DNA of 64,000 nt from Terriglobia bacterium (lineage in GTDB: Bacteria > Acidobacteriota > Terriglobia > Terriglobales > Acidobacteriaceae), in the NCBI GenBank assembly GCA_963831465.1, contig CAWHQH010000039.1:108892-172891 (forward strand). The letters run 5' to 3'. The translations under genes and the position numbers were made by a program. Below are positions 6,549 through 9,212 of this stretch, piece after piece. Position 1 is the stretch's first letter; every line of letters starts with the position of its first letter. The notes below the pieces were generated by a model. It had not been told where the DNA came from, did no database searches, and worked only from the letters and a program-made list of their open reading frames with translations.

Positions 6549-7772
6549 CTATGCGCTCTTGCGCAGCAGTCCAGTCATGGCCCAGATTCCAAGCAGTGGC
6601 CCCAATGCCATACTGGACAGGGCCCAATTCCATCCATAACGGGCCGCAATGGCTGCCATCAATCGAATGACGAACGCAGTCAGTAGAAATCCCAATGCGA
6701 CTTGGCAGGTTAGCGCCGTGCCGACGTAATTTTTGTCCGATACTTCGCTGATGATGGTGGAGAATTGAGCCGAATCGGCAATGATCGCGATTCCCCATAC
6801 CAGCGAAAGCGGTATGAGAATCATGGGATGGTGCAGCGTTAGCGCAGCCAGCACACAGCACATGGAACTGATGCCCATAGCAATTATCGTTACGCGGGCG
6901 CGCTGCGCCACGCGGACCCTAGACGCTTGGTCCTGCAGCTTATCACTGGCTGCCCCGGCCCATATGCAGCCCACTGCGCCAATAGCGATAGCCAGTGCCG
7001 CCATTGCTTCAAGCATTGAGTGGGACCATGCTGCGGAGACCGAGAAGATCACGGCGATCCATCCCCACATGGAGTAAAGCTCCCACATGTGTCCCAGATA
7101 GCCCAGATTGGCCAGCCGCAGTGATCGGTTGCGGACGATCTCAAGAATTTGCGCAGGGTCAAAGCGTGATTGTGGCATGGCAAATGGTCCTTGCCTCACT
7201 GCTACGGCAACAATCAAAGCTCCAAGCAATGCCTGTGCGCTACCAAGAAGAATTACACCTTGCCACGGCACTCGGCCCACCGCGCTTACCGCGTGAGGCA
7301 ACGCCGATCCTACCGTCAGCGCGCCGATCATGATTCCCAGCGCCAGTCCGCGTCCACGCTGAAACCAACCGGCAATAATTTTCATTCCTACGGGATAAAC
7401 ACCAGCCAGGAAGAAACCTGTTGCGCCGCGCAGCAGGATAGCCGGCAGTGGGTGTGCGGCCAAGAATGCAAATGCGGCGTTGGCAGCCGCTGCCGCTACG
7501 GCAGAGACAACCAGCACCTTAATCGGGCTGAAGACATCGGGAATATTGAAGAGCGCAAACGTGATAGCGCCTACTGAAAATCCAACTTGCACGGCGATAG
7601 TCAGCCATGATCCCAGTGCAAGCCCTGAATGCCAAAGCGTTGTTATCTGCGGAATTACAGCCGTTCCGGTAAACCACAGTGACATTGCCAATAGGATCGA
7701 GACTGAAAGCAAAAAAAGAGCCCGCCGGGATGAAGTTGCCTGGCGGGCTTCTGTCTGGACCGTTACCGTCAT
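6549..7772 (-). CDS. MFS transporter
   Basis: 407 aa with about 12 hydrophobic segments in MFS-like organisation. Its start directly abuts the stop of the upstream peroxiredoxin gene. Confidence 0.85.
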   Translation of the reverse strand: MTVTVQTEARQATSSRRALFLLSVSILLAMSLWFTGTAVIPQITTLWHSGLALGSWLTIAVQVGFSVGAITFALFNIPDVFSPIKVLVVSAVAAAAANAAFAFLAAHPLPAILLRGATGFFLAGVYPVGMKIIAGWFQRGRGLALGIMIGALTVGSALPHAVSAVGRVPWQGVILLGSAQALLGALIVAVAVRQGPFAMPQSRFDPAQILEIVRNRSLRLANLGYLGHMWELYSMWGWIAVIFSVSAAWSHSMLEAMAALAIAIGAVGCIWAGAASDKLQDQASRVRVAQRARVTIIAMGISSMCCVLAALTLHHPMILIPLSLVWGIAIIADSAQFSTIISEVSDKNYVGTALTCQVALGFLLTAFVIRLMAAIAARYGWNWALSSMALGPLLGIWAMTGLLRKSA

Positions 7773-8354
7773 TTAACTCTTAAGCTTCCGGCGTTCACAT
7801 GATTCAACCACTTTGGTGGGATCGATTGCATCGCTGTCGATCTGCATTTCGGCAATCTTTCCTTCTTTATCGATCAGGAAGTTCACGCGGCGGCCAATTT
7901 TGTGCTTCTCGTCATAAAGGCCGTATTTACGCGTAACGTCGCCGCCCCAATCGCTCAGCAGTGGGAAGGTGACATTGATTTTCTCCGCCCATGCGGCATT
8001 ACTGAAGGGGCTGTCCATGCTAACACCCAGCACCTGGGTGTCTGCAGCTTCCAGTTTTTTCAGATTCGCCTGGAAGTTCTGCATCTGCTTGGTTCAACCA
8101 CCGGTGAAGGCAAAGATATAAAACGCCAATGCGACGTTCTTCTTTCCCTTGAAATCATGGAGTGAGACCTTGTTCTTGTAGGTCTGATCGGGCAAAGTAA
8201 AGTCAGGAGCCACATCTCCGACCTTCAATGCAGGCGCCGGGGGCGCTTCTTTTTTTTCTTCTTTCTTATCGCTTTGCGCCAGCAGATTGGTTCCTGCCGC
8301 AGGCCCCAACAACGCCAGCGTTCCCAACATCTGAACAGCGGTTCTTCTACGCAT
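7773..8354 (-). CDS. Secreted AhpC/TSA-family peroxiredoxin with in-frame TGA (putative selenocysteine) at the peroxidatic position
   Basis: Track ORFs 8094..8399 and 7773..8084 are in the same frame and are separated only by TGA at 8094-8096. The read-through sequence is ...[21 protein letters not shown]..., so TGA sits at the C of the universal Prx TxxC motif. The ATG at 8354 has a GGAGGA Shine-Dalgarno and gives [21 protein letters not shown], a signal peptide. Confidence 0.7.
8044..8082 (-). promoter_or_regulatory. SECIS-like hairpin downstream of the in-frame UGA
   Basis: On the minus strand the structure is GCAG-AA-CUUCCAG [15-nt loop GCGAAUCUGAAAAAA] CUGGAAG-CUGC. It pairs 4+7 bp with an AA bulge. 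It starts 11 nt after the UGA, and the loop begins about 24 nt after it. Confidence 0.45.
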
Positions 8355-8492
8355 TAGTTCTTCCTCCGCATGAATGCTGCATGGTAAGCCTAAATTCACA
8401 TACTCAGTACGTCAATAGGCGAATCCTATAGCCGCTGGGGGCCAGCAACTTCAGCCGAAACAGGTGTTAGTATTTTGCTGAGATACATTCCA

Positions 8493-9212
8493 ATGAAAAC
8501 ATTAAGTTTGTCCATTATGCTGGCGCTTGCTTCTATTGCGTCTGCACAGGTTTCTACTACTCCCAGTGCGATCCAGATGAATACCATCTATGCCGGCGCG
8601 GATGGCAAGTTTGAAGCAGCGCCCGACACTGCCGTTATCCGCATGGATATTGCCTCGCAGCAGGATACGTCACGCGCAGCTTATGACCATGCTGCTTTGG
8701 CGGTGGACCATGTGCGCCAGGTTTTGACGAGCAATAACATTGATCTAAAGGCGGCCCAGTTCGGCACTTACCAGATGCAGCCGATGTACGACTGGAAAAA
8801 TCCCAAACACAAAGTGATCGGCTATCGCGTCAGCTCTGACGTCACGCTCAAGCTACGCGACTTCAAAAAGGTCGGCAACATGACAGAGCAATTGGCGGAC
8901 ATTGAAGAGACACAGAACCAGTCAGTGACTTACACGCTGGAAGATATTGAACAGGCAAAAGCCAAAGCGTCAGAAGACGCGTTAAAAAAGGCTCGCAACC
9001 AGGCAGCAGCCGTCGCCACCGCCGGCGGACGCACGCTGGGCGACCTTCTCTATGCTTCAGTGGATGTGAACCAGCAAAACGTTGTTCCGGCTATGTTTGC
9101 GCAAGCCAGATCAGCTGTATCGGCCGCGGCAACGCCTCCGCCCATGGCTGACTTCACGCCGCAAACGGTCACCATCAACGCGCATGTGAACGCCTTGTTT
9201 GCGCTGAAGTAG
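8493..9212 (+). CDS. SIMPL-domain (DUF541) periplasmic protein
   Basis: Signal peptide MKTLSLSIMLALASIASAQ. Overall similarity to the YggE/26-kDa periplasmic immunogenic protein family (…GYRVSSDVTLKLRDFKKVG…). Confidence 0.8.
   Translation: MKTLSLSIMLALASIASAQVSTTPSAIQMNTIYAGADGKFEAAPDTAVIRMDIASQQDTSRAAYDHAALAVDHVRQVLTSNNIDLKAAQFGTYQMQPMYDWKNPKHKVIGYRVSSDVTLKLRDFKKVGNMTEQLADIEETQNQSVTYTLEDIEQAKAKASEDALKKARNQAAAVATAGGRTLGDLLYASVDVNQQNVVPAMFAQARSAVSAAATPPPMADFTPQTVTINAHVNALFALK

Follow-up and report, generated by a model that had tools for sequence, protein, structure and literature searches.

We analysed a window of 64,000 nucleotides from a Terriglobia bacterium (contig CAWHQH010000039.1 of assembly GCA_963831465.1), in which a peroxiredoxin gene on the minus strand contains a single in-frame UGA, and we propose that the signal directing selenocysteine (Sec) to this codon is probably a composite of two adjoining hairpins. 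The proximal hairpin (HP1) would bridge the gap between the UGA and a distal hairpin (HP2), to which SelB would bind, and the whole might be closed by a basal helix (P1) that contains the UGA itself. Both hairpins exist, are under selection at the RNA level, covary and are specific to the Sec forms of the gene. The loop motif of HP2 is shared with canonical Sec insertion sequence (SECIS) elements and the apex of HP1 is not conserved. From these observations we infer HP2 as the site of SelB binding and HP1 as a spacer. The features of the window on which the text relies are as follows.

7773..8354, minus strand: gene for a peroxiredoxin, starting at the ATG at 8354 and 193 codons long, with only one in-frame TGA (translation with TGA read as U; Pfam AhpC-TSA, PF00578).
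8094..8096, minus strand: UGA, predicted Sec codon U87 at the peroxidatic Cys position, motif FAFTGG-U-TKQ (translation and homologue alignment).
8043..8083, minus strand: HP1, 12 bp (5+7, with an AA bulge) and a variable 15-nt loop; proposed spacer or bridging helix (minimum free energy (MFE) fold by RNAfold, pairing in orthologues, synonymous diversity).
8023..8041, minus strand: HP2, ACACCCAG-GUG-CUGGGUGU, 8 bp with a triloop (or 7 bp with the loop GGUGC); proposed SelB-binding SECIS core (MFE, covariation, loop motif).
8087..8099, minus strand: tentative 5' strand of P1, GGUUGAACCAAGC, which contains the UGA (RNAalifold on 72 sequences and single-sequence MFE).
8009..8020, minus strand: tentative 3' strand of P1, GCAUGGACAGCC (same two methods).

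The UGA of the peroxiredoxin gene is almost certainly a Sec codon, judging from its sequence context. The 193-residue product depends on the TGA at 8096..8094 being read through, and a Pfam search of the translated protein matched PF00578 (AhpC/TSA) over residues 45-169 with an E-value of 4.4e-37. The motif T-x-x-U is present and the UGA replaces the peroxidatic Cys of the AhpC/TSA fold. Homologues were collected by six-frame genome searches, because database gene calls end at the TGA, and further orthologues were taken from public contigs. Of 36 genomes sampled from the same genus, 35 contained a homologue with exactly one TGA, as did many other Terriglobia. In total, the catalytic Cys codon is replaced by a lone TGA, flanked by an intact frame on either side, in well over 100 genomes. 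We refer to the Sec-peroxiredoxins of the window's clade as type B and to those of other Terriglobia families as type A. Every fetched type-B orthologue retained the TGA at the U87 position, where Cys homologues align TGC or TGT. The source genome, a 5.2-Mb metagenome-assembled genome, encodes selB (340 bits, above the cut-off; G000:C2:6769-8652) and a tRNA-Sec (73.9 bits, anticodon UCA), and selA and selD were also detected, the latter with a TGA of its own. The selA match fell into two adjoining pieces in different frames (68616-69134 and 69137-69985 within G000:C20:68616-69985, plus strand). This is either a frameshift from the assembly or a genuine disruption, and it bears on the synthesis of Sec-tRNA in the source genome.

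HP1 had been described in an earlier, sequence-only reading of this DNA as a SECIS-like stem-loop of 11 bp with an AA bulge and a 15-nt loop. In the order of the minus strand the sequence runs UGA (8096..8094), ACCAAGCAGA, U-GCAG-AA-CUUCCAG-[GCGAAUCUGAAAAAA]-CUGGAAG-CUGC-A. The MFE fold of the region is this hairpin, 5+7 bp with the 2-nt AA bulge and the 15-nt loop, and an extra U-A pair brings the stem to 12 bp instead of 11. On the minus strand the stem begins 10-11 nt and the loop 24 nt past the UGA, as had been claimed, the loop thus lying within the 16-37 nt expected of bacterial SECIS elements. The isolated hairpin (8043-8083) had a free energy of -14.9 kcal/mol with a z-score of -3.81, and 0 of 200 shuffled sequences folded as well; in a looser context of 71 nt the z-score was only -1.52. 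HP1 exceeds what is expected by chance.

To describe selection on the RNA we used synonymous diversity, the share of sequence pairs with the same amino acid that differ in the codon, in an ungapped alignment of 72 distinct orthologues, with codons -15..-3 and +34..+104 as background. Pairing and covariation were counted on 71 distinct rows. The HP1 stem codons had a diversity of 0.10 compared with 0.49 for the background (Mann-Whitney p = 6e-6), divided into 0.04 for the 5' strand and 0.16 for the 3' strand, and the 15-nt loop had 0.44. The amino acids of the stem codons are encoded by varied codons elsewhere in the gene. Among the stem cells of the alignment 96% were paired, and the helix was kept by different nucleotide solutions, from which it follows that HP1 is conserved beyond the amino-acid level. 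Where alignment columns 49-50 read GC, the opposite strand had GCC in 14 of 15 sequences, and where they read AA it had GCU or ACU in 55 of 56; this register shift relocates the bulge and retains 12 bp. A compensatory change from C-G to U-A was found at columns 51-79 in one orthologue (L138), and one genus (g14) had an alternative helix, CUC..GAG with a lower stem of CGCA/UGCG. The covariation that the sequence-only reading had proposed to look for is thus present.

The loop of HP1 evolved freely, with 52 distinct loops among the 71 sequences and a synonymous diversity near that of the background. The earlier description of a loop beginning with G holds for the window, whose loop begins GC; among the orthologues a G in the first two loop positions was found in only 34 of 71, and for this reason we did not count it as conserved. 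As candidates for a small SECIS inside the loop we considered CAG[GCGAAU]CUG and UUC[CAGGC]GAA. These were rejected, as the 3' partner at columns 64-66 varies freely, the pairing competes with invariant CCAG/CUGG pairs, and the 12 type-B sequences share no conserved hairpin at 16-37 nt that complies with the bacterial model. What stands of the SECIS-like call is a conserved RNA structure, HP1, at the place where a bacterial SECIS normally begins, downstream of a probable Sec UGA; that HP1 is the SelB-binding element was not supported, given its 15-nt loop and the free evolution of that loop.

A second conserved hairpin, HP2, which the sequence-only reading had not described, adjoins HP1 with 0-1 nt between them, and its loop begins 59-60 nt past the UGA. 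HP2 alone had an MFE of -11.4 kcal/mol (z-score -2.58), and HP1 and HP2 jointly -27.5 kcal/mol (z-score -4.72). In the alignment 97.9% of the HP2 cells were paired. Pair 93-97 was G-C in 55 sequences, A-U in 14 and G-U in 2, the A-U form arising by a replacement of CAG..CUG with CAA..UUG in which both changes are synonymous, and pair 87-103 was C-G in 47, U-G in 12 and U-A in 4. G94 and U95 of the loop were invariant (71/71), the third loop base was free (synonymous diversity 0.75), and the flanking N1 and N2 covaried as G-C or A-U, which gives the motif G/A-GUN-C/U. Nine type-B orthologues carried the pentamer A-GUC-U in HP2, as do some type-A SECIS loops. Over both hairpins, the stem codons had a synonymous diversity of 0.13 against the background of 0.49 (p = 2e-7) and the loops 0.49. 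On the coding side HP2 corresponds to the conserved peptide TQVLG. In type-A genes the identical peptide is encoded by varied codons and no conserved hairpin is formed at that site, so HP2 cannot be explained as a side effect of the peptide.

According to the consensus for bacterial SECIS elements (Zhang and Gladyshev 2005, summarised in PMC13188914, Fig. 2A), the apical loop has 3-9 nt and the upper stem 4-16 bp, a G is present at loop position one or two in the pattern N1-G-[G/U]-N-N2, the UGA and the apical loop are 16-37 nt apart and the MFE is -7.5 kcal/mol or lower. The window has the in-frame UGA in a selenoprotein gene of a Sec-decoding organism, and both hairpins are stable enough at -14.9 and -11.4 kcal/mol. 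HP1 lies at a suitable distance (24 nt); it fails on the size of its loop and, across the orthologues, on the G rule. HP2 has an acceptable loop of 3 or 5 nt on a stem of 7-8 bp as well as the G, and fails the published model on distance alone, being outside the range at 59-60 nt of linear sequence; the distance would be approx. 19 nt only if the folded HP1 is skipped. The arrangement is like that of bacterial SECIS elements, with the E. coli fdhF element as prototype, in that it follows an in-frame UGA inside the coding region, in a host with selA, selB, selC and selD, and has its first structure about 11 nt past the UGA. It is unlike them in that no single hairpin satisfies all constraints and two helices are apparently needed, perhaps within a three-way junction of approx. 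91 nt. A cmscan search of 7600-8600 against Rfam release 15, with E-values up to 10, gave four matches at chance level, none of them to a SECIS family. A score of HP1 against HP2 under a covariance model of canonical SECIS hairpins was judged uninformative, as the identity of the coding sequences would dominate.

To compare the Sec and Cys forms we applied the bacterial SECIS criteria to fetched homologues, with the distances given from the UGA, or the Cys codon, to the loop.

Type A Sec-peroxiredoxins (other Terriglobia families), n = 17: hairpin at 16-37 nt in 17 of 17; none conserved at 50-65 nt.
Type B Sec-peroxiredoxins (the window's clade, several genera of family f1), n = 12: at 16-37 nt none in 8, and differing, non-conserved hits in 4; HP2 at 59-60 nt in 12 of 12.
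Cys homologues, n = 12: at 16-37 nt one hairpin of canonical type at 23 nt (L176) and three unrelated stems at 33-37 nt; no hairpin of the HP2 type at 50-65 nt.

The hairpin of type A was found at 23 nt in 15 of the 17 genes, with the loop A-GGC-U or A-GUC-U and often a bulged U, two of these fifteen being slightly weaker than -7.5 kcal/mol; in the other 2 it lay at 28 nt in the best-scoring fold. Type A and type B are thus homologous genes that share the position of the UGA and an apical motif, which reads A-GGC-U or A-GUC-U in the type-A genes and G-GUN-C or A-GUC-U in HP2. In contrast to the single canonical hairpin of type A, with its bulged U and its loop at 23 nt, type B has no conserved model-compliant hairpin at 16-37 nt and carries the motif 36-37 nt further downstream. 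A few of the 12 Cys homologues had weak or differently placed stems at 50-65 nt. The Cys homologues mostly lacked both hairpins, which are specific to the Sec forms, and the case that would have spoken against the sequence-only reading, equally stable hairpins in Cys orthologues, does not hold, most Cys homologues being without HP1.

Two single sequences of this comparison deserve mention. The Cys (TGT) homologue L176 (G191:C1:115042-115697) has a canonical-looking hairpin, UGGCAUACCA[GGC]UGGUAUCGCUA, 23 nt past its Cys codon, which may be a relic of a Sec ancestor. The type-A gene L160 (G109:C1:1496746-1497476) has, besides the canonical hairpin at 23 nt, a 5-bp hairpin CCCAG[GUG]CUGGG at 60 nt, and may represent an intermediate between the designs with one and with two hairpins.

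Canonical SECIS elements with loops that begin about 18-21 nt past the UGA were found in three other genes of the genome, each with one in-frame TGA. In fdhA (G000:C24:171846-174848, plus strand) the UGA is followed after 12 nt by GUGCCC[GGUCU]GGGCAC, in a second molybdopterin oxidoreductase gene (G000:C33:10919-11821, plus strand) after 11 nt by CGUCGCC[GGUCU]GGCGGCG, and in selD (G000:C19:99268-100197, minus strand) after 13 nt by GUCCGGC[GGC]GCUGGAC; the loop begins at 18 nt in the first two. The genome was also scanned, in open frames, for stems of at least 6 bp with a loop starting with GGU that follow an in-frame TGA by 14-94 nt. Only four of the 33 hits were protein-like, namely fdhA and the second molybdoenzyme gene, both at 18 nt, and two peroxiredoxins, both at 59 nt.

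The second of these peroxiredoxins is a paralogue that lies outside the window (G000:C32, minus strand, first base of the TGA at forward coordinate 83017), with the sequence AFYPLDWSPT-U-TNEMSAYGTYLPKFAEHDAQVVGISPDSIY. This form, AFYPLDWSPT-U-TNEMSAY, is 38-43% identical to the window protein and was present in 15 sampled genomes of the genus and in the source genome. Its bridging helix, (G)UCGGCG...CGCCGA(C), begins 11-12 nt past the UGA and has a variable apex, with 16 variants in 16 sequences. After a further 3-4 nt follows the distal hairpin (G)AUGCCCA[GGUCG]UGGGCAU(C), with 9 bp in the source genome and its loop at 59 nt from the UGA. Compensatory double changes were found in 4 of 15 pairs compared with 0.8 expected in shuffles, and none of 500 shuffles reached this number. 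Two Cys (TGC) relatives of the paralogue lacked both helices. In an unrooted maximum-likelihood tree the type-B genes came out as a single clade (100/100) inside a polytomy with the type-A and Cys forms, and the paralogue was placed across a long branch from type B, next to Cys paralogues without hairpins. Because of this placement the tree suggests that the design of a distal hairpin with a bridge arose twice.

The basal helix P1 is the least certain part of the signal. It would close a three-way junction of 91 nt (8099..8009) with a free energy of -38.1 kcal/mol and a z-score of -4.40 (RNAalifold; single-sequence MFE of 8009-8099). Pairs 29-32/114-117 were 100% paired, with changes of the wobble type only, and the P1 codons had a synonymous diversity of 0.19 compared with 0.49 (p = 1e-4); no double compensatory change was found in the core pairs of the 71 rows. 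As a P1 equivalent in the paralogue we considered UUGAACC with GGAUUCAA. This pairing is good in most sequences, but its 3' strand is not conserved and RNAalifold predicts no such helix, so it was not adopted. We kept P1 as a tentative, modelled element because the changes in its core are only wobble-compatible and no conserved counterpart exists in the paralogue.

In the proposed mechanism HP2 (8041..8023), with its G+C-rich stem of 7-8 bp and small N1-G-U-N-N2 loop, would be the SelB-binding core. HP1 begins 10 nt past the UGA, leaves 0-1 nt up to the start of HP2, and would loop out 41 of the nucleotides in between. Once HP1 has folded, the distance to be covered from the UGA to the loop of HP2 would be 10+1+8, or about 19 nt, near the 18 nt of the canonical elements in fdhA and in the second molybdoenzyme gene. 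When a UGA is in the A site, approx. 10 nt of the downstream mRNA lie inside the ribosome. HP1 would then stand at the mRNA entrance and present HP2 at the normal position of a SECIS stem-loop, and SelB-GTP-Sec-tRNA(Sec) on HP2 would be within reach of the A site. Both hairpins would be located at the entrance and could be coaxially stacked, since the 91-nt fold leaves no unpaired base between them.

Su, Li and Gladyshev are said to have obtained Sec insertion in E. coli, in 2005, from a SECIS in the 3' untranslated region that base pairing placed close to the UGA. The SECIS is normally found at the mRNA entrance next to h16 of the 16S rRNA, and a SECIS fused to h16 works, so that proximity rather than linear distance can suffice (PMC10945757). 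The principle of these cases, that a SelB-binding hairpin distant in sequence or even outside the mRNA can direct Sec insertion if RNA structure or tethering puts it close to the decoding ribosome, is the one we propose here. Unlike the fusions and the engineered distant SECIS elements, which are artificial, the present arrangement is natural, lies wholly in the coding region, is conserved in a family-level clade and occurs in two paralogues. To the wider proposal, that this is a natural SECIS acting by tertiary proximity, we give a slightly better than even chance. The SelB hairpin would lie approx. 60 nt from the UGA and be moved within range by a conserved spacer hairpin, in a three-way junction of approx. 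91 nt; the design would have arisen at least twice, once in each of two peroxiredoxin paralogues of a single acidobacterial lineage, because the coding sequence would permit a SelB-type loop only at the TQV(L/V)G codons, and such a class would be missed by current search models, which expect one hairpin at 16-37 nt.

Alternatively, HP1 alone could be the SECIS, with the SelB of this lineage reading a large-loop stem at canonical distance and HP2 being accessory or unrelated. The starts of its stem at 10-11 nt and of its loop at 24 nt are both canonical, the position coincides with that of the type-A SECIS (loop at 23 nt), and the synonymous sites of the stem are strongly conserved. We nevertheless regard this as unlikely. 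A loop of 15 nt exceeds the 3-9 nt of the consensus, the equivalent helix of the paralogue has a wholly different apex that varies in 16 of 16 sequences, and the small GGUCU loops in fdhA and in the second molybdoenzyme gene have to be recognised by this SelB as well. Moreover, a covarying HP2 with a SECIS-type loop would be left unexplained.

It is similarly improbable that HP2 acts as the SECIS at approx. 60 nt with no bridging, HP1 having a separate role such as causing a ribosomal pause at the UGA or interfering with RF2, comparable to downstream structures that promote stop-codon read-through or frameshifting. HP2 does have a SelB-type loop, and the base of HP1, approx. 10 nt past the UGA, is where a structure meets the mRNA entrance according to the established geometry of the ribosome. 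However, in E. coli a spacing of approx. 11 nt between the UGA and the SECIS is required (PMC11431864), the consensus places the loop at 16-37 nt, and the close junction of HP1 and HP2 (0-1 nt, in the paralogue 3-4 nt) fits a spacer better than an independent element. A role of HP1 in pausing and one as spacer are not mutually exclusive. That the hairpins are unrelated to Sec (serving mRNA stability or regulation, or being an artefact of codon usage), or that the TGA is a true stop in a split or dead gene, is very improbable: although Sec insertion here is predicted from the sequence and Rfam gave no SECIS hit in 7600-8600, the single TGA stands at the catalytic Cys codon of intact frames in well over 100 genomes, the hairpins occur in the Sec forms of two paralogous families and are missing from most Cys forms, the loop of HP2 agrees with those of canonical SECIS elements in the genome, and the same amino acids use varied codons elsewhere in the gene.

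Several points weigh against the composite signal with a bridging HP1. The binding of SelB, the insertion of Sec and the fold of the RNA in vivo are predictions. HP1 sits at the canonical SECIS place of related genes (loop at 24 compared with 23 nt) and could be a degenerate or non-canonical SelB site. The distance of 19 nt with HP1 skipped is a geometric intuition and not a model, and in the paralogue the path with the helix skipped is 22-24 nt, not 18-19. The shuffle statistics overstate the significance, because the sequences are related. HP2 overlies the conserved TQVLG, so its conservation is partly at the protein level. Finally, the independence of the two origins rests on an unrooted tree, and the paralogues may instead have acquired the design by gene conversion.

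Sec-peroxiredoxins are a known selenoprotein family, so the UGA described here is ordinary and it is the signal that is unusual. In the literature we found no published natural bacterial SECIS in which a spacer helix separates the UGA from a SelB-type hairpin approx. 60 nt away. The prediction of selenoproteins and their recombinant design assume one hairpin whose stem begins approx. 11 nt and whose loop begins 16-37 nt past the UGA, and a 2026 review states that some predicted SECIS elements fail the model (PMC13188914). If the composite signal is real, spatial and not linear distance would be what SelB needs, which would explain why some predicted selenoprotein genes fail. It would also provide a design rule by which a SECIS is placed where the protein tolerates it, the main obstacle to selenoprotein production in bacteria. 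For annotation, Sec-peroxiredoxins are very common in soil Acidobacteria, and gene callers that read TGA as a stop split such genes in two, as happens with the gene in the window.

Like the Sec-peroxiredoxin PrxU of Eubacterium acidaminophilum (Sohling et al. 2001, listed in PMC13188914), the window protein has the AhpC/TSA fold with the UGA at the peroxidatic Cys in T-x-x-U. It is not a PrxU orthologue, as it scored 80.4 bits against NCBIfam NF040737, for which the cut-off is 270. Its best NCBIfam hit, the model for Bcp-type thiol peroxidases, was also below the cut-off (93 bits compared with 140). It further differs from known Sec-peroxiredoxins in a signal-like N-terminal sequence and in an Ile that replaces the conserved Pro of PxxxTxxU (YIFAFTGGU; 8094-8120, minus strand). 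The corresponding segment of the paralogue is PLDWSPTU, with Ser for Thr.

Past the stop of the peroxiredoxin gene, by 25-60 nt, a G+C-rich, terminator-like hairpin, GCCCGCC...GGCGGGC followed by seven U, was found at 7712-7750 (minus strand). It falls within the first codons of a predicted open reading frame for a transporter of 407 amino acids (6549..7772), and because of this overlap the transporter may start further downstream, and the co-translation with the peroxiredoxin suggested by the abutting reading frames may not hold.

Across the class Terriglobia, the Sec forms of the peroxiredoxin far outnumber the Cys forms. Tandem pairs of Sec-peroxiredoxin genes with one TGA each were seen in many Terriglobia, for instance at G334:C2:655846-656910, G164:C296:16509-17610, G274:C99:10343-11393 and G232:C19:338191-339371.

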